From assembly GCF_021028995.1 (NCBI RefSeq), contig NZ_JAJJZG010000002.1, forward strand, positions 290,468-330,467: a stretch of DNA of 40,000 bases. Direction: 5' to 3'. The notes beneath the pieces are model-generated. The model searched no databases, had not been told where the DNA came from, and worked only from the letters and a program-made list of their open reading frames with translations. Below, piece by piece: positions 10,646-30,329 of this stretch; position 1 is the stretch's first letter, and the number at the start of each line of letters is the position of its first letter. The DNA comes from Halobacterium sp. KA-4 (GTDB lineage: Archaea > Halobacteriota > Halobacteria > Halobacteriales > Halobacteriaceae). The translations under genes and the position numbers were made by a program.

Positions 10646-12376
10646 ATGGACGCGGACGCGGTTCGGGAGCGCGCGAGCGACCTGCCGACGGAGCCCGGCG
10701 TCTACCAGTTCCTCGACGGCGACACCGTCCTCTACGTCGGGAAGGCGGTGGACATCCGGGACCGCGTGCGGTCGTACGCAGACCCGCGCAGCGAGCGCAT
10801 CGCGCGGATGGTCGAGCGCGCGGACGCCATCGACTTCGCGGTGACGGACACGGAGACGCAGGCGCTGCTGCTGGAAGCGAACCTCGTGAAGCGCCACCAG
10901 CCGCGGTACAACGTCCGCCTCAAAGACGACAAGTCCTACCCGCTCGTGCAATTCACGGACCACGCCGTCCCACGCATCGAGGTGACCCGCGACCCCGACG
11001 AGGGCGCGGCGGCGTACGGCCCGTACACGGACAAGGGCGACGTCGAGATTGTGGTGAAGGCGATTCGGGAGGTGTACGGGCTCCGCGGCTGCTCGGACCA
11101 CAAGTACCGGAACCGCGAGCGCCCCTGCCTCGACTACGAGATGGGGCTGTGTTCGGCGCCCTGCACGGGCGAAATCGGCGAGGCCGACTACGCGGCTGAC
11201 GTGGAGTCCGCCCGCAGATTCTTCGAGGGGGAGACGGGTGCGCTCGCGGACCCCCTCGAACGCGCGATGGAGCAGGCCGCGCAAGCGCAGAACTTCGAGC
11301 GCGCGGCGCACCTCCGAGACCGCCTGGACGCCGTCGAAGCGTTCCACGGCGGCGCGGGCGCGGCGGTCGCGGGCGGCGACGACGCGGCGACGACGGACGT
11401 GCTCGGCGTCGCTGTGGAGGGCGAGGATGCGACGGTCGCGCGCCTGCACGCCGAACGCGGGCAGCTCGTGGAGCGTGACCAGCACCACTTGGATGCACCA
11501 GAGAACGAGAGTCCGGCGGACGTGCTGGCGGCGTTCCTCGTGCAGTTCTACGCGGAACGCGACCTCCCGGACCGCCTGCTGTTGCCCGAGCGCCACGGCG
11601 ACGACGACGTGGCGGCGTGGCTCGACGAGGCGGGCGTCGAGGTCCGGGTGCCGGGCGCGGGCCGCGAGGCGACGCTCGTCGACCTGGCGCTGAAGAACGC
11701 CCACCGGCGCTCCGGCGAGCGGGACGAACTCGGCGCGCTCGCGGACGCGCTCGGCATCGACCGGCCGACCCGCATCGAGGGCTTCGACGTGAGCCACGCG
11801 CAGGGGAAGGCCGTGGTCGGCAGCGACGTCTGTTTCGTGGACGGGAGCGCCGAGAAGTCCGACTACCGCCGGAAGAAACTCGACGAGGAGAACGACGACT
11901 ACGCGAACATGTACCGGCTGCTCCGCTGGCGCGCCGACCGCGCGGTCGAAGAACGAGACGACCGCCCAGCCCCCGACCTGCTCCTCATCGATGGCGGCGA
12001 GGGGCAACTGGACGCGGCGCGCGAAGCGCTCGCGGACGCGGGCTGGGACGTGCCCGCGGTCGCGCTGGCGAAGGACGAGGAGGTCGTCATCACGGAGCGC
12101 CGGACGTACGACTGGGCCGACGGCGCACCCCAACTGCACGTCCTCCAGCGCGTGCGCGACGAAGCCCACCGGTTCGCGGTCGCCTACCATCAGACGATCC
12201 GGGACGACGTGGAGACGACACTCGACAACGTCGATGGCGTCGGCCCGGAACTCCGCAAGCGCCTGCTACGGCGGTTCGGGAGCGTCAAGGGCGTGCGCGA
12301 AGCCTCCGTCGAGGACTTGCGGGACGTGGAGGGCGTGGGCGAGGCAACTGCAGAAACTATCACGAGTCGACTCTGA
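10646..12376 (+). CDS. uvrC: Excinuclease ABC subunit C
   Basis: GIY-YIG N-terminus ([25 protein letters not shown]), UVR domain, C-terminal endonuclease and HhH region. Confidence 0.95.
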
Positions 12377-16179: not shown

Positions 16180-16455
16180 ATGGTACGCGAAGACCTGCGC
16201 GCGGCGAGCGACCACCTCCGAGCCGCCTCCGTCGCCGCCGACGACCCCGACCACGAGCAGCGCCTCTACGACCAGTCCGACGCGCTCGCGGAACTCGCGA
16301 CCGCCGACGACGGCCCCGACCACGGCCGCCTCGCCCGCATCACGCACGCGCTCGACGACCTCGCGGACGCGGTCGAAGACGAGGAAGCACGCGAGAGCAT
16401 CGCCGACGCCAAAGCCAGCGTCGAAGCCTATCGCGAGACCGTCGAGGGCGTCTAA
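16180..16455 (+). CDS. Small acidic helical protein, tandem paralog 2
   Basis: 91 aa and acidic, a paralog of 15838..16137. The stop TAA at 16453-16455 sits in the loop of GCGTC-TAA-GACGC. Confidence 0.6.
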   Translation: MVREDLRAASDHLRAASVAADDPDHEQRLYDQSDALAELATADDGPDHGRLARITHALDDLADAVEDEEARESIADAKASVEAYRETVEGV

Positions 16456-16648
16456 GACGCACTTTTGCTGTGAGAAGGCGCCGGAGGCGCCCTCTCTAGC
16501 AAGAACTTGCGGAAAAAGCACTCCTCGCTCCTGCCGCGCCCTGCGGGCGCGTTAGTCGGTCGTCGGCCTCGTGGCTTCGCCGCGAGTGAACCGCTCGCGC
16601 ATTCCGAGGCGCTATGCACCTCGCGGCGCTCGCGGATGCTCGTCAGCC
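16456..16648 (+). repeat. Stop-adjacent T-tract/hairpin intergenic repeat, copy A
   Basis: Core 16456-16526: CACTTTTGC, a long hairpin with apex GGCGCC-GGA-GGCGCC (16477-16491), then GCAAGAACTTGCGGAAAAAGCACTCCTC. The tail has further hairpins (GCGCCC-TGC-GGGCGC at 16536-16550) and blocks shared with copies B, D and E. Confidence 0.85.
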
Positions 16649-20279: not shown

Positions 20280-20468
20280 ATGAGCGACCAGAACGACGAA
20301 GCGCCGCGGAGCGTCCGGCGACATGCGGAGGTGCGGCGGAATCCCGAGATGACCAGCGTCGGCTACGCGATGCTGCTCGGCCTACTCGTGTTGCTGATGC
20401 CGCTACTGCCGTTCCTCGTCATCATTTGGGTCATCGCGCGGCTCACGGACTACGCTGCGGGACGCTGA
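20280..20468 (+). CDS. Small membrane protein (62 aa, putative)
   Basis: Charged N-terminus followed by one long hydrophobic segment (VGYAMLLGLLVLLMPLLPFLVIIWVIA). No motif recognised. Confidence 0.5.
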   Translation: MSDQNDEAPRSVRRHAEVRRNPEMTSVGYAMLLGLLVLLMPLLPFLVIIWVIARLTDYAAGR

Positions 20469-20469
20469 A

Positions 20470-20627
20470 CAGCCGCGGACGAGCATTCGTGGCCTCGTGC
20501 CGCGATTCATCGCGCGAACGTAGTGAGCGCGGGCCGACGACTGACCATCGGGAGGGAGGAGTGCTTTCTCCGCAAGGTTTTGGAAGTGAGGCGCGCGGAG
20601 CGCGCCGAGCGCAGCAAAAAGTGCGTC
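20470..20627 (-). repeat. Stop-adjacent T-tract/hairpin intergenic repeat, copy B
   Basis: Read on the minus strand from the TAA at 20628-20630: GACGCACTTTTTGC, hairpin apex at 20590-20606 (GGCGCGC-GGA-GCGCGCC on plus), then CCTTGCGGAGAAAGCACTCCTCC. The tail carries CAGTCGTCGGCC, GATGAATCGCGG and GAATGCTCG. Confidence 0.85.
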
Positions 20628-21614
20628 TTAGACGCCGAGCATGTCGAAGCCGTAGCCGTTGTCGTGTTCTTCGGCGTGTTCGTAGGCGACGTGGGCGGCG
20701 GCGACGTCCTGGATGGCGAGACCCGTGGAGTCGAAGACGGTGATGCCGTCATCGGCGGTGCGGCCGTCCTTGAGGCCGGTGACGAGTTCGCCGACTTCGC
20801 CGTAGATGTCGTCGTCGCCGAGCACACCAGTATTGTAGGGGACGTTGATTTCGCCGGAGTGGGTGGTCTGGTCGTGGTCGTCGATGACGAGTTTGCTGTC
20901 GAGGAGGAGGTCGTCGGCGAGTTCGTGTTTGCCCTCGGCGTCCGCGCCCATGGCGTTGATGTGGGTGTGGTCGCCGACGTCCTCGCGGGAGACGATGGGG
21001 TCTTCGACGGGAGTGACCGTCGAGAGGACGTCGCAGTGGCCGGCGTCGCTGATGGAGCCTTCACGGACGTCGAAGCGGTCCTGGAAGTGCTCGACGAACG
21101 CGCGAACGGCGTCCTCGTTGACGTCGCTGACGACGACTTCCTCGATGTCGCGGACGGTGGCGATGGCTTCCAGTTGCGTGTATGACTGGACGCCAGCGCC
21201 GACGACGCCGAAGGACGTGGCGTCCTCGATGGCGAGGTAGTCGGTGGCGACGGCTGCGGCGGCGCCCGTGCGCTGCATCGTGAGTTCGGTGCCGTCCATG
21301 ATGGCGAGCGGGTAGGCGTTCTCGGGGTCCGAGTACACCATCGTCCCCATGACGGTCGGGAGGTCGTAGTGCGTGGGGTTGTCGGGGTGGACGTTCACCC
21401 ACTTGATGCCGGCGGCGTCCCAGTCGCCGGCGTCGAGGTACGCGGGCATCGACCGGAAGTCGCCGTTGTACTCGGGGAGGTCGATGTAGGACTTCGAGGG
21501 CATCTGGGCGTCGCCCTTCTGGTAGGCCGCGAACGCGTCCTCGACGGCCGGAATCAGGTCCGCCATCTGGACGTTCTCGCTGACGTCTTCCTTGTTGAGC
21601 AGCAGCGTCTCCAT
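20628..21614 (-). CDS. Ornithine cyclodeaminase/mu-crystallin family enzyme (archaeal alanine dehydrogenase-like)
   Basis: 328 aa. The family-typical N-terminus (LLNKEDV...IPAVEDAF) and a Rossmann segment (FGVVGAGVQS) are present. Confidence 0.85.
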   Translation of the reverse strand: METLLLNKEDVSENVQMADLIPAVEDAFAAYQKGDAQMPSKSYIDLPEYNGDFRSMPAYLDAGDWDAAGIKWVNVHPDNPTHYDLPTVMGTMVYSDPENAYPLAIMDGTELTMQRTGAAAAVATDYLAIEDATSFGVVGAGVQSYTQLEAIATVRDIEEVVVSDVNEDAVRAFVEHFQDRFDVREGSISDAGHCDVLSTVTPVEDPIVSREDVGDHTHINAMGADAEGKHELADDLLLDSKLVIDDHDQTTHSGEINVPYNTGVLGDDDIYGEVGELVTGLKDGRTADDGITVFDSTGLAIQDVAAAHVAYEHAEEHDNGYGFDMLGV

Positions 21615-21699: not shown

Positions 21700-21876
21700 G
21701 TCGGTGAGCGAGCGGTGCAGCGCGGCGGAACGGGAGTATCCGGCGACCGGAGGTCGCCGGTTCACAGCGCGCGAAGCGCGCTGGCGCCGAACCCACCGAA
21801 AGTGGGCGACGGGGCTTTTTCCCAAGTTTTTGCGAACGAGGACGGCGAAGCCGTCCGAGTGTAGCAAAAAGTGGGT
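21700..21876 (-). repeat. Stop-adjacent T-tract/hairpin intergenic repeat, copy C (divergent)
   Basis: Core 21811-21876, read from the thermosome TAA: CCCACTTTTTGC, apex hairpin at 21840-21856 (GGACGGC-GAA-GCCGTCC on plus), then GCAAAAACTTGGGAAAAAGCCCC. Three perfect hairpins follow at 21792-21806, 21765-21783 and 21740-21760. Confidence 0.7.
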
Positions 21877-23556
21877 TTACATCATCCCGCCCATGCCGCC
21901 GCCCATACCGCCGCCCATGCCGCCGGGGCCGCCGGCGGGCGGGCCTTCGTCGCCGCCTTCGTCGCCGCCGACCTGACCGCCAGCGAGGTCGCCCGCGGCG
22001 ATGACGTCGTCGATGCGGAGAATCATCGTCGCCGCTTCGGTGGCGGATTCGATGGCCTGGGTCTTCACGCGGAGCGGCTCGACGACACCTTCGGCGTCCA
22101 TGTCGATGACTTCGCCGGTGTAGGCGTCGAGGCCGGCCGCGGAGTTGCCGGCGTCGTGCTGGCTGCGGAGGTCCACGAGGGAGTCGATGGGGTCGTGGCC
22201 CGCGTTCTCGGCGAGGGTGCGCGGGATGACTTCGAGGGCGTCCGCGAACGCTTCGACGGCGAGCTGTTCGCGCCCACCGACGGAGTCAGCGAACTGGCGG
22301 AGCTGCATCGCGAGCTCGGTTTCGGGGGCGCCGCCACCGGGCAGCACCTTGCCGTCCTCGAGCGTGACGCGAACGACGCCGAGCGAGTCGTCGATGGCGC
22401 GCTCGACTTCGTCGACGACGTGCGCGGTGCCGCCGCGGAGGATGAGCGTGACGGACTTCGCCTCTTCGACGTCCTCGACGAAGATGCGTTCGTCGCCGCC
22501 GATGTCCTTCTGGGCGACGCTGCCGGCTTCACCGAGGTCGTCGGCTTCGATGTCCGTGACGTTCGAGACGGGCGTCGCGCCGGTGGCGCGGGACAGACGG
22601 GTGAAGTCGTCGGATTTCACGCGGCGGACGGCGAGGATGCCTTCCTCCGCGAGATAGTGCTGGGCCATGTCGTCGATGCCGCCGTCCACGAAGACGACGT
22701 TGGTACCGGCGGCCGCGAGCGCGTCGACCATCTCCTTGAGCTGCTCCTCTTCCTGGTCGAGGAACTGCTGGAGCTGGTCGGGGTCGGTGACGTTGACCTC
22801 GGTGTCGATTTCGGTCTCCTTGACTTCGAGGCCGTCGTCGACGAGCGCGATGTTGGCGTCCTCGACGCCGAAGGGCATGTTCTCGTTGACGCGCTCCTTG
22901 TCCACGATGACGCCCTCGATGAGTTCGGAGTTCTCGATGGCGCCGCCGGTGACCTTCTCGACTTTGATGTTGTCCGTGTCGACGCTGCCGTCGTCGGCGA
23001 CCGACTGGACGGCGCGCACGACGAGACCCGAGAGGACGTCCTTGGCGTTCTCCGCGCCTTTACCGGTCATCGAGGTCGCGGCGAGCTTCTCGAGCTCCTC
23101 GGTGTCGTCCGGGGAGATGTCGACGGCCTTCTCCTCGAGGAACGTGCGAGCCTGCTCGGCGGCCTGTCGGTAACCCTGCGCGAGCGTGGTCGCGTGGATG
23201 TCCTGTTCGAGGAGGTCCTCGGCCTCGGAGAGGAGTTCGCCGGAGACGACGACGGCGGAGGTGGTGCCGTCGCCGACCTCGGTCTCCTGCGTCTCGGCGA
23301 CCTCGACGATCATGTTGGCCGCCGGGTGCTCGATGTCCATCTCCTTGAGGATGGTGACGCCGTCGTTCGTGACGACGACTTCACCCGTGGAGTCCACGAG
23401 CATCTTGTCCATCCCTTTGGGGCCGAGTGTGGTACGTACGGCCTCGGAGACGGCTTTCCCGGCGGTGATGTTCATCGACTGTGCGTCCTCTCCGGAGGTG
23501 CGCTGGCTATCCTCCGAAAGTACGATAAGCGGCTGATTACCCATCTGCTGCGCCAT
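21877..23556 (-). CDS. ths: Thermosome (group II chaperonin) subunit
   Basis: ATG at 23556 ([22 protein letters not shown]). Contains [13 protein letters not shown] and GDGTTS motifs and a C-terminal GGM repeat tail. Confidence 0.95.
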
Positions 23557-23582
23557 AGTCACTGTTTGATTGAATGCGATTC

Positions 23583-23594
23583 TATTTAAATATT
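23583..23594 (-). promoter_or_regulatory. Thermosome TATA box
   Basis: ATATTTAAATAG (minus-strand reading) ends 26 nt before the ATG. It sits in an AT-rich stretch at about 23560-23690, which is unusual for this window. Confidence 0.6.
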
Positions 23595-23769
23595 GTGCGA
23601 AAGGGAGTAACACACCCTGGGAGACGCGCTGAGACGGCAGTCAACGCCAAATTCGAAAATTCACGACGGGGTATTTATGCTTAAATCGGGTTTTCTCGTC
23701 GGGAGACGGCGCTCGCGCTCGGCGAGCACAGAGAACGAGAAGGTAGCAGAAAATCCTGAGTGTGTCGCC

Positions 23770-27864: not shown

Positions 27865-28041
27865 ATGCTCGACAAACTCGGCCTCTCCGGGCTGTTCGGC
27901 GTCCTGCTGATTCTCGCCGGCATCGGCGTCGTCGCGTGGAACGCCCCCATCGTCGCCGCTGGTCTCGTCCTCGTCCTGCTCGGCCTCGCACTCGTCGTGC
28001 GTCGCGCCGCCAAGTCCGTCATGGGGATGTTCGGGTTCTAG
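27865..28041 (+). CDS. Small two-TM membrane protein (58 aa, putative)
   Basis: ATG at 27865 ([25 protein letters not shown]...). Hydrophobic. The stop TAG lies at the centre of the 14-nt palindrome GGGTTCTAGAACCC. Confidence 0.5.
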
Positions 28042-28245
28042 AACCCACTTTTTGCCAGGGAGAACGTCAGAGGCGCCCTCCCTGGCAAGAACTTGCGGCA
28101 AAACACTCCTCGCCCCCGTCGTCTGCAGGCGACCTGTGAGTCGCCCACAGGCCCGAGGGGCGGCTCCGTCGTCCCTCTCTGGTCGCTCGATGAATCGCGG
28201 TGCTCGGGTCTGTCAGACTGCTCGCACCGCGAATGCTCGCAACGG
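28042..28245 (+). repeat. Stop-adjacent T-tract/hairpin intergenic repeat, copy D
   Basis: Core 28042-28111: AACCCACTTTTTGC, stem TTGCCAGGGAG/CTCCCTGGCAA, then GCAAGAACTTGCGGCAAAACACTCCTC. The tail carries GATGAATCGCGG and GAATGCTCG (28231-28239). Confidence 0.85.
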
Positions 28246-28804: not shown

Positions 28805-28821
28805 ACACACCAGAGAGAGTT

Positions 28822-29084
28822 AGCATCCGCGAGTGAGCGGTCCGAAGGACCCGAAACTGAGGAGACCTCCGGTCTGCTTGCCCCTCGTGAGTGAAACGAA
28901 CGAGGACGAAGGGGTTCACCGCGAGCCGGAGGCTCGCTGGCCGACGACTGAGGGGCGCGAGGCACTACGCGCCTCGGAATGCGCGAACGGCGTCGCCGTG
29001 AGCGCGAAGCGGACCGAAGGAGGAGTGCTTTCTCCGCAAGTTTTTGCAAGTGAGGCGCGCCGAACGCAGCAAAAAGTGCGTGCG
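28822..29084 (-). repeat. Stop-adjacent T-tract/hairpin intergenic repeat, copy E
   Basis: Core 29020-29084, read from the sufS TAG: CGCACGCACTTTTTGC, GGCGCGCC (one hairpin arm missing relative to copy B), then GCAAAAACTTGCGGAGAAAGCACTCCTCC. The tail carries CGCGCATTCCGAGGCGC, CAGTCGTCGGCC, GCGAGCC-TCC-GGCTCGC and GCGGATGCT. Confidence 0.85.
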
Positions 29085-30329
29085 CTAGTTGAAAATCTCC
29101 CGCGCGGCGTCCAGCGAGTCGACGAGCGCGTCGACTTCTTCTTTCGTGTTGTAGAGGTAGAACGAGGCGCGCACGGACGCAGCGATGTCGAGTTTCTGGT
29201 GGAGCGGCTGCGTGCAGTGGTCGCCGGCACGGATGGCGACGCCGTGGTCGTTCAGAATCGAGGCGAGGTCGTGGGCGTGGATGCCGTCGACGTTGAACGC
29301 GACGACGGCGCCACGGTCGTCCGCGGGGGGGCCGTAGATTTCCACGTCGTCGAATTCGTCGAGGCGCTCGTAAGCGTACTCGGTGATGCGTTCCTCGTGG
29401 GCCTGGATGGCTTCCATGCCGACGTCGTCAAGGTAGTCGGCGGCTTCCGCGAGCGCGATGCCCTGCGCGATGAGCGGCGTGCCGGCCTCGTACTTCCACG
29501 GCAGGTCGTTCCACGTGGTGTCCTCGAAGGAGACGCGCCGAATCATGTCGCCGCCGTAGAGGAACGGCTCCATGTCCTCCAGAATCTCCTGCTTGCCATA
29601 GAGCCCGCCGATGCCGGTCGGCCCCGCCATCTTGTGCCCGGAAAAGACGTAGAAGTCGACGTCGAGTTCCTTCACGTCGACGGGGCGGTTCGGGACGGAT
29701 TGCGCGCCGTCACCGAGGATGAGCGCGTCCTGCTCGTGGGCGAGGTCCGCGAGTTCGCGCATCGGGTTGACGGTGCCGAGGACGTTCGAGGCGTGCACCA
29801 CGGAGACCATCTCAACGTCCTCGTCGATGAGTTCCGCGGCGTGGTCCATGTCGAGGTAGCCGTTCTCGTCGACGCGGATGTAGCGGACTTCGGCGCCAAC
29901 CTTCTTCGCGATTTCGCGCCACGTCACGAACGACGAGTGGTGCTCCATCTCGGAGAGCACGACCGCGTCGCCCTCCGAGAGCTCGTTGAGCCCCCACGCG
30001 TACGCCACGAGGTTGATGGACTCGGTGGTGTTCTTCGTGAAAATCATCTCCTCGCGGCCGTCCGCGCCGACGAAGTCGGCGAGGCGGTCGTGGGCCTCCT
30101 CGTACGCGATGGAGGCTTCCTGACTGAGCTGGTGGATGCCGCGGTGGACGTTCGCGTTGTACCCGCGGTAGTAGTCCGAGAAGACGTCGACGACCTGCTC
30201 GGGCGTCTGCGTCGTCGCCGCGTTGTCGAGGTAGACGAGCCGCTGGCCGTCGCTGACCTCCCGGTCGAGGATGGGGAAGTCGGCCCGGATGGCGTCGACG
30301 TCGAGGGGGTCCTGCTCGGTGGCTTCCAT
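29085..30329 (-). CDS. sufS: Cysteine desulfurase (SufS/class V aminotransferase)
   Basis: PLP-lysine motif FSGHKMAGPTG and catalytic-cysteine loop RAGDHCTQP. 414 aa. Confidence 0.9.
   Translation of the reverse strand: MEATEQDPLDVDAIRADFPILDREVSDGQRLVYLDNAATTQTPEQVVDVFSDYYRGYNANVHRGIHQLSQEASIAYEEAHDRLADFVGADGREEMIFTKNTTESINLVAYAWGLNELSEGDAVVLSEMEHHSSFVTWREIAKKVGAEVRYIRVDENGYLDMDHAAELIDEDVEMVSVVHASNVLGTVNPMRELADLAHEQDALILGDGAQSVPNRPVDVKELDVDFYVFSGHKMAGPTGIGGLYGKQEILEDMEPFLYGGDMIRRVSFEDTTWNDLPWKYEAGTPLIAQGIALAEAADYLDDVGMEAIQAHEERITEYAYERLDEFDDVEIYGPPADDRGAVVAFNVDGIHAHDLASILNDHGVAIRAGDHCTQPLHQKLDIAASVRASFYLYNTKEEVDALVDSLDAAREIFN

Follow-up and report, generated by a model that had tools for sequence, protein, structure and literature searches.

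A composite palindromic repeat family behind stop codons of haloarchaeal genes, a candidate mobile hairpin DNA

In bacteria, many REP/BIME repeats lie within about 15 nt of stop codons, where they stabilize or terminate the upstream mRNA. Haloarchaea harbor palindrome-associated transposable elements (PATEs), which derive from IS200/IS605-type ends (Dyall-Smith et al. 2011, PMC3119063), and the targets of haloarchaeal IS605-type elements include TCTAA, TCTAC, and TTAG (PMC3119063). Hairpins and T-stretches are known haloarchaeal termination signals; in H. volcanii, T-stretches constitute the intergenic termination motif, and a T5C stretch terminated 95% of transcripts (PMC7237163).

We analyzed a repeat that occurs five times in the window, by which we mean the whole 40-kb stretch of Halobacterium DNA under study. 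The five copies are members of a large family of composite palindromic repeats that is specific to haloarchaea and whose closest published counterpart is the haloarchaeal PATE (PMC3119063). The nearest named relative of the source organism is H. noricense.

Five copies in the window and the anatomy of the element

All five copies (A to E) are oriented with the gene that they follow and lie 0-6 nt past its TAA or TAG stop, and each of these genes is supported by Pfam and shares the strand of its copy. A search of the 40 kb with the family HMM returned exactly five matches, which are copies A to E (E-values 1e-35 to 1e-21). Shared strings far exceed their expectation in shuffled sequence: the conserved 21-mer CTTGCGGNNAAAGCACTCCTC occurs 3 times in the window (0.00 expected), CACTTTTTGC with at most one mismatch 5 times (0.38 expected), and GCAARAACTTG 5 times (0.28 expected). 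The copies, and the parts of copy A, are located as follows.

Copy A, full element: 16456-16642, plus strand; directly past the TAA (16453-16455) of a DUF7553 gene (16180-16455)
Copy A, first hairpin (hp1): 16457-16512, plus strand; ACGCAC-TTTT-GC...GCAAGAA-CTTGCGG, with the T-run at 16463-16466 paired with the A-rich run
Copy A, linker m2, AAAGCACTCCTC: 16515-16526, plus strand; reads GAGGAGTGCTTT(TT) on the opposite strand
Copy A, linker m3, GTCGTCGGCC: 16559-16568, plus strand; followed by hp3
Copy A, linker m4, GTGAACCG: 16586-16593, plus strand; hp4 is closed by pairing of the m4 C with the m5 G
Copy A, optional nested hairpin module (CGCGCATTCCGAGGCGC...) in hp4: 16596-16630, plus strand; also present in copy E, within its hp2 region
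Copy A, 3′ terminal motif m5, GGATGCTCG: 16634-16642, plus strand; end of family conservation
Copy B: 20480-20627, minus strand; past the TAA (20628-20630) of an ornithine cyclodeaminase (OCD)/alanine dehydrogenase family gene (20628-21614)
Copy C: 21733-21876, minus strand; past the TAA (21877-21879) of the thermosome gene (21877-23613)
Copy D: 28042-28239, plus strand; past the TAG (28039-28041) of a small DUF7470 gene (58 aa, about 27865-28041)
Copy E: 28820-29084, minus strand; past the TAG (29085-29087) of a NifS-like class-V aminotransferase gene (29085-30329), upstream of nifU

Copy B occupies the gap up to a convergent DUF7535 gene at 20280-20468.

Comparison of the window copies with eleven further Halobacterium copies from public genomes revealed a single architecture of 144-265 nt, in which four hairpins are joined by conserved linkers. 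From the stop codon, the order is 0-4 nt, hp1, N3-4, m2, hp2, m3, hp3, m4, hp4, and m5, where m2 is AAAGCACUCCUC, m3 is UCGUCGGCC (also given as (CA)GUCGUCGGCC), m4 is GUGAAY, and m5 is GRAUGCUCG. The 3′ boundary is sharp, with conservation ending within three bases past m5 (GRAYGCTNG). Hairpin hp1 carries a T4-5:A4-5 pairing near its foot: five outer pairs, including a conserved C·C mismatch and an A-T pair, lead inward to this T:A segment, which is followed by G-C and C-G pairs, a conserved 3x3 internal loop (GCU/CUC), and a variable GC-rich stem with an interior of 12 to 188 nt.

Variation is superimposed on this plan. Optional hairpin modules are nested inside the element hairpins, as exemplified by the module that copy A carries in hp4 and copy E in its hp2 region. 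Copy E combines a shortened hp1 with additional nested hairpins, and copy C represents a variant sub-lineage with linkers m2′ (AAAGCCCCGTCG) and m3′ (TTCGGCGCC). A second tail type in the family reads ...GCCTGCCCTCCCCCGAGTC-hairpin-CTCCCGGCCAC.

These results refine the initial annotation of this stretch, which had been made from the letters of the window. It had placed the five copies correctly, each string that it quoted as shared was located where described, and its observation that copies begin just past a stop in gene orientation applies to 5/5 copies, at 0-6 nt. Its account of a T-tract, a long covarying hairpin, conserved linkers, and T-runs on both strands is accurate, as is its statement that ORFs, terminal inverted repeats, target duplications, and CRISPR-like spacing are absent. 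Its estimate of a ~70-nt unit was too short, the unit spanning 144-265 nt and ending sharply at G(G/A)AT(G/A)CT on its 3′ side. Copy C, reported there as lacking a tail, has a full one in the variant motifs AAAGCCCCGUCG, UUCGGCGCC, and GGAUACU, and what were taken for shuffled blocks are the conserved linkers that join the four hairpins in a set order, together with optional nested hairpin modules.

Several other interpretations of the anatomy were rejected. Coding potential is incompatible with hairpin lengths that differ by non-multiples of 3 and with a frame that shifts between linkers among copies. A hammerhead or other ribozyme core, or a K-turn, suggested by the GAUGAA/GUGAA and GUC motifs, misfits in motif order and sequence and has no Rfam match. 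In copies A, B, and D, a small hairpin ahead of the T-run has the stop codon in its loop, but this is no family trait, with shuffled gene ends giving equal complementarity. A long-range interaction between AAAGCACUCC and either GGAUGCU or GGAGUGAA clashes with the closing pair of hp4.

Stop-codon context, spread, and history of the copies

A coding-like ORF precedes 63 of the 93 assessable unique copies, and in 59 of these 63 the T-run comes 4-9 nt past the stop codon, which thus abuts the hairpin foot; about one-third of copies have no detectable ORF upstream. Stop-codon usage next to the element is highly skewed (TAA 30, TAG 20, TGA 2) relative to genes without it (TGA 348, TAG 242, TAA 156; Fisher p=3e-11). 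The base before the stop is also biased, being C at 69% of element-adjacent stops versus 29% of background TAA/TAG stops (p=3e-8), and at 83% versus 38% when TAA alone is considered; this preference could partly reflect the kinds of genes involved.

The stop-codon bias and the pre-stop C together give a flank that reads (A/T)C-TA(A/G), for example TCTAA. This context is strongly biased, is separated from the hairpin foot by 0-4 variable nt, and is lacking in about one-third of copies. The 5′ flank of the element consists of the gene's own last codons. The flanks of 58 copies contained no repeated flank indicative of target duplication, and a TAA/TAG target-site duplication at the 3′ end was likewise not seen. 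Downstream neighbors are same-strand in 22 cases and convergent in 21, which speaks against any preference for convergent gene pairs.

Among 98 copies, the T-run measures 4 nt in 71, 5 nt in 21, and 3 nt in 6 (4-5 nt in 92/98), and this T4-5(G/A)C run sits 4-9 nt past the stop codon. Two T-runs also lie on the other strand, one complementary to the A-run and one to AAAA(A)GCAC. Given T-runs on both strands and the published H. volcanii data, a role as a two-way oligo-T terminator or insulator is plausible for the element, which we regard as a candidate on the basis of its sequence.

The family extends well beyond the window, in line with the expectation of the initial annotation that further copies might exist. 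In addition to the eleven Halobacterium loci in genomes, a motif scan detected at least 120 loci in hypersaline metagenomes, and a sister flavor resides on plasmids of the Natrialbaceae genera Natrinema, Haloterrigena, Natronorubrum, Halomontanus, and Natronococcus, where one copy lies between the gyrB stop codon and gyrA. Matching plasmid records amount to a handful, Natrialbaceae in every case, and 2.9 million viral contigs yielded 0 matches. Because extra copies occur about once per 85 kb in the metagenome loci, the five copies in 40 kb constitute a dense patch.

The copies group by genome, not by locus. All Halobacterium copies, at >15 different loci, carry CGCAC-T5 ... A5-CTTGCGG, and the Natrialbaceae flavor reads CCGAAC-TTTT...AAAA-CTTCGATG-AAAAGCACTCCTCC at many loci. 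No described family that would account for the element was found, an outcome on which the initial annotation had made its assessment depend: Rfam gave no gathering-score match in the window or 8 loci and nothing relevant at E<=1 in 4 loci, and the literature searched on REP/MITE/PATE repeats, haloarchaeal structured RNAs, and H. noricense contained no description of it.

Orthologous sites differ in occupancy, the kind of polymorphism for which the initial annotation had proposed to look. Several Halobacterium genomes carry a copy at the sites 3′ of the thermosome, OCD, and DUF7470 genes. In outgroups, H. yunchengense lacks the element at all three sites, H. litoreum lacks it at the thermosome and OCD sites and has it at the DUF7470 site, and the sampled loci of Haloferax, Salarchaeum, and Haladaptatus contained no copy. 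Where the thermosome site is empty, the gene mostly ends in TGA. No strain-level empty/filled pair among the compared genomes gave the exact insertion boundaries.

The copies also bear signs of mosaicism. At the OCD site of two close relatives (L160 and L161), hp1 is identical and the tails differ; conversely, the loci L006 and L021 of a single genome are identical over an 80-nt center and differ in hp1 and hp4. Gene order breaks exactly at element-bearing gene ends in nearly every genome compared. The grouping by genome, the mixing of hp1 with different tails, the shared center, and the gene-order breaks argue for copy gain and frequent inter-copy recombination. The diversity of copies within one genome, which are not near-identical, means that there is no sign of a recent burst.

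The copy 3′ of the thermosome gene forms a vertically inherited sub-lineage whose helices are kept through compensatory change. Its m2′/m3′ helix covaries (GCGCCG/CGGCGC versus GCCCCG/CGGGGC), which indicates that structure is also maintained in place.

Pairing constraint, proposed mobility, and competing explanations

To prevent an aligner from favoring pairing, the alignments used for covariation took the conserved linkers as anchors. In hp3 and hp4, 88.6% of cells are paired, compared with 64.0% in shuffles and 29-47% in slid controls, and both sides change in 11/12 pairs. The covariation score of these hairpins is 0.595 (0.180 in shuffles, with 0/500 shuffles as high), and that of the hp1 foot, for which copies were chosen partly by pairing, is 0.287 (0.089 in shuffles, again 0/500 as high). 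At the closing pair of hp4, GUGAA(C/U)...(G/A)AUGCU, 39 sequences have C-G and 10 have U-A. The complementary arms that the initial annotation had noted thus hold up at family level, with scores above every shuffle for hp3/hp4 and for the hp1 foot.

Several features bear on which molecule folds. Transcribed functional RNA normally tolerates G·U. The anchored stems comprise 734 Watson-Crick pairs, 8 G·T, and 9 A·C, and wobble is no commoner than the A·C mismatch on either strand. Loops are mostly 3 nt long, and UUCG or GNRA tetraloops are absent from the element loops. Gene-strand triloops are TNC in 103 cases versus GNA in 23 (p=3e-13), and the strand opposite the gene therefore presents C(GNA)G loops such as GCGAAGC, which are the most stable known mini-hairpins of DNA. 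Folding predictions with either RNA or DNA parameters favor the opposite strand as well, for tails in 51-53 of 58 copies and for hp1 in 70-81 of ~93 copies. The rarity of wobble, the triloop strand bias, and the better opposite-strand folding suggest that the constraint is read as DNA and not as RNA. The evidence points to a constraint acting on folded single-stranded DNA, or on both strands jointly with one favored.

We place at about 50% the probability that the element is mobile DNA of a palindromic, non-autonomous, and site-specific kind, landing behind TAA or TAG, where it would be kept as a harmless supplier of terminators. The evidence leans toward mobility through the WC|TAR context, the empty orthologous sites, the genus flavors, the mosaic modules, the Watson-Crick-only stems, and the one-strand GNA bias. 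In the mechanism that we infer, a putative enzyme would move the element as folded single-stranded DNA and integrate it in one orientation immediately 3′ of an (A/T)C-TA(A/G) site, which in these GC-rich genomes is mostly a TAA or TAG stop codon. The inserted element would set a T4-5 run 4-9 nt past the stop and two T-runs on the other strand, and may thereby end transcription from both sides and insulate neighboring genes. Copies would be tolerated and kept because of this proposed two-way termination and insulation, and recombination between them would swap modules and break gene order. Against mobility, the hairpin sequences of the element vary far more than known transposon ends read by single-stranded DNA enzymes, and no transposase or recombinase partner was identified among the loci examined.

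A rather unlikely alternative to mobile DNA is a non-mobile host cis-acting RNA module of 3′ UTRs, acting as a terminator, as 3′-end-protecting hairpins, or as a processing or protein-binding platform, with its RNA structure under selection and its spread due to duplication and recombination only. It fits the position right behind stops, the oligo-T runs, and the established use of hairpins and T-stretches as haloarchaeal termination signals. Copies are kept at orthologous thermosome, PCNA, nifS, and gyrB sites with compensatory stem changes, including the covarying variant linkers m2′/m3′, a pattern that, judged from these alignments, also fits locus-level selection for a host function. Yet the parity of wobble and A·C mismatches, the prevalence of triloops, and the missing UUCG/GNRA tetraloops are not what such an RNA would predict, and termination at the first T-run would leave most of the element untranscribed from the upstream gene. 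Nor does a host module explain TGA avoidance and the pre-stop C, flavors that are specific to genera and not to loci, or empty outgroup sites, and no Rfam family matches. Independent small-RNA genes, read gene-wise or toward the gene and ending at GGAGGAGUGCUUUU, are very improbable. The defined length and sharp ends would suit them, as would U-runs that come after the structured part on the opposite strand, and their CUCCUCC/GGAGGAG linkers might pair with Shine-Dalgarno or anti-Shine-Dalgarno sequences. However, neither side carries a conserved promoter-like motif at a fixed distance, wobble is not tolerated, placement is tied to the upstream stop instead of to an own transcription unit, and downstream neighbors are about evenly split between the two orientations.

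Descent from IS200/IS605 in the strict sense, as a PATE composed of fused left and right tnpA/tnpB transposon ends moved in trans by TnpA through peel-and-paste, is improbable. The absence of terminal inverted repeats and of target duplication agrees with it, the (A/T)CTA(A/G) flank resembles published haloarchaeal IS605-type targets, and the small palindromic modules nested in the element parallel those described for PATEs. The ends themselves bear some likeness: a real IS has AAAAAGCA...GCC-hairpin-GGGTGAA on the left, compared with AAAAGCAC...GGCC-hp3-GAGTGAA in the element, and hairpin-GGATGTCAA (hairpin-GGATG) on the right, compared with hp4-GGATGCTCG. But a genuine IS (L163, with tnpA and tnpB) has the same hairpin, TCGGGGCTTGACCCCGA, at its left and right ends, 85-95% conserved across genera, whereas hp1, hp3, and hp4 of the element differ from each other and between copies. 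The family HMM misses the ends of L163, the one IS type compared (best E>2, elsewhere in the locus), and hp1 stands between the presumed target and the left-end-like part, unlike in known left ends. A motif screen of 1.2 Mb of element-bearing loci detected no TnpB-like ORF, and no tnpA/tnpB partner was seen. With hairpins that all differ, no HMM match, and no TnpB-like ORF, membership in IS200/IS605 is not supported; a similar working mode is possible. Among the candidates that the initial annotation had offered with none preferred, the mobile hairpin element is thus favored, its assignment to IS200/IS605 (PATE) is unsupported, and the sRNA/3′-UTR module is weakened by the lack of wobble tolerance.

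Carrying the mobile-DNA reading further is tentative. The family may possibly represent a previously undescribed class of mobile DNA in Halobacteria, which would consist of hairpins only, target stop codons, be moved as a folded single strand by a putative enzyme, be domesticated as a 3′-end cassette (terminator/insulator) of housekeeping genes, and drive genome rearrangement. If so, some of the seemingly plain intergenic DNA behind haloarchaeal core genes (thermosome, PCNA, gyrB, nifS) would be a single repeat family with a defined grammar, and an archaeal counterpart to bacterial REP/BIME or attC-like folded-DNA elements. This would imply an undescribed enzyme that reads hairpin DNA beside TAA/TAG, explain the gene-order breaks at element-bearing gene ends in Halobacterium, and provide natural portable two-way terminators for haloarchaeal genetics. 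For annotation, a covariance model would mask element regions and prevent their miscalling as small RNAs or small ORFs.

Comparison with known systems

Like PATEs, the element is short, non-coding, and dispersed in haloarchaeal genomes with heterogeneous copies; it has hairpins near its ends without terminal inverted repeats or target duplication, a bias toward a TA-containing 4-5 nt sequence at its 5′ flank, and nested small palindromic repeats. It differs from them in that its two end hairpins are unlike each other and not conserved between copies, in an extra long T:A-footed hairpin at the 5′ end, and in strict placement behind stop codons; similarity to tnpA/tnpB elements is not detectable in comparison with one genuine IS (L163).

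The likeness to archaeal oligo-T intrinsic terminators (PMC7237163) consists of T4-5 followed by G/A-C a few bases past the stop, with T-runs also on the other strand. Such a terminator, however, needs the T-run alone and not the 150-260 nt of hairpins and linkers that the element contains, and it leaves the stop-codon and upstream-base bias unexplained.

With REP/BIME, the element shares extragenic imperfect palindromes with covarying stems, present in many copies at gene 3′ ends and inside operons, as well as a composite, mosaic build and a role as sites of recombination. It is distinguished by its archaeal host, a far greater length, four ordered hairpins, and the absence of a GTAG-type head.

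Integron attC sites of the VCR type also follow an ORF stop in the orientation of the ORF and form an imperfect palindrome with a variable covarying center and conserved feet; they are recognized in single-stranded, folded form, and asymmetries determine which strand is used. In contrast to attC, the element lacks RYYYAAC/GTTRRRY core sites, its feet being CGACC-TTTT...AAAA-GGTCG or similar, and the genes upstream are dispersed housekeeping genes (thermosome, gyrB, PCNA, nifS) instead of cassette arrays, with no integrase context seen. REP/BIME and attC are functional analogues of the element, although it lacks the defining motifs of both.

Gene order around the thermosome block

Comparison of the window with L031, L032, L033, L034, L160 and L161 (L-numbers denote comparison loci from genomes or metagenomes, with coordinates given within each locus) revealed that the block DUF7470–eIF-1A–RIO1–KH protein–thermosome–OCD (ornithine cyclodeaminase family; window:27865-21614) is unbroken across them. 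Its outside neighbours, at both ends, are different in almost every Halobacterium genome. Because the genes past both ends vary while the block itself remains intact, its breakpoints coincide with sites of the element, the four-hairpin repeat located directly behind stop codons.

Sequences flanking the element

An insert of ~55 nt lies between two direct copies of 9 bp (ATGATGTAA) at L032:9677-9745, positioned exactly at the thermosome stop codon and immediately before the element's 5′ end. Its appearance is that of a very small, independent insertion accompanied by a target duplication. At L023:6085-6125, an extra CACTTTTTAC motif directly follows the stop codon, 15 nt 5′ of the element's own CACTTTTTGC, and may be a leftover of an older copy.

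On the 3′ side, a conserved sequence of ~120 nt (GCTGCGTAGGTTCAAGTAnGAGnnCGGGACCAA...GTCCGGCCGAGGCGGGAGCG) starts 5-40 nt beyond the element's end at loci whose upstream genes differ. An Rfam search returned no match for it in L016, L024, L034, L044 and L062, and it could be an additional module, an unknown RNA or a promoter. In one metagenome lineage, another repeat (...CTACTAGTAGAAACTCGCCCGGTAGTGTTCCGGGCGTACA...) occupies both flanks of the element, and no ORF lies directly upstream; this combination suggests arrays or a composite repeat. Near nifU, a hairpin with TTTTTAC, kept at the same position in L088, L117 and L132, is probably a terminator or the nifU TATA region.

Flanking features
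L016, L024, L034, L044, L046, L062, L080, L110: ~120-nt conserved downstream sequence
L054, L068, L071, L099, L103, L104, L123: element flanked on both sides by the CTACTAGTAGAAACTCGCCCGGTAGTGTTCCGGGCGTACA-containing repeat
window:28791-28804, - strand: hairpin CGTTCCGCGGAACG, then TTTTTAC, between copy E (behind the NifS-like gene) and nifU

Modules nested within the element

Inserted modules were observed inside copies. Optional double-hairpin modules (for example, TCTGCTCACGG...GGTCCCGCTC and TCTTCAAAAGAGCGC...GATCCCGCTCAG) occupy the 3′ arm of hp1, the long 5′ hairpin, or the junction between A-run and outer stem, and extend hp1 up to 188 nt. Separately, a ~58-nt mini-element of two hairpins is nested at places that vary between copies.

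Nested modules
L031:11055-11175 and L032 (both OCD copies), L072: double-hairpin modules in hp1
L059, L082, L083, L085, L094, L097: the same, in copies of the Natrialbaceae-type sister flavour
L161 ~11090-11150: mini-element, within the OCD copy
L032 (OCD copy), L015 and L061 (5′ parts of the copies): mini-element, further hosts

The mini-element carries inverted ends, TTCGAAAG...CTTTCG-TGAT(G/C)A-CGAAAG...CTTTCGAA, and resembles the small mobile repeats of Haloquadratum, which are reported to target palindrome-associated transposable elements (PATEs).
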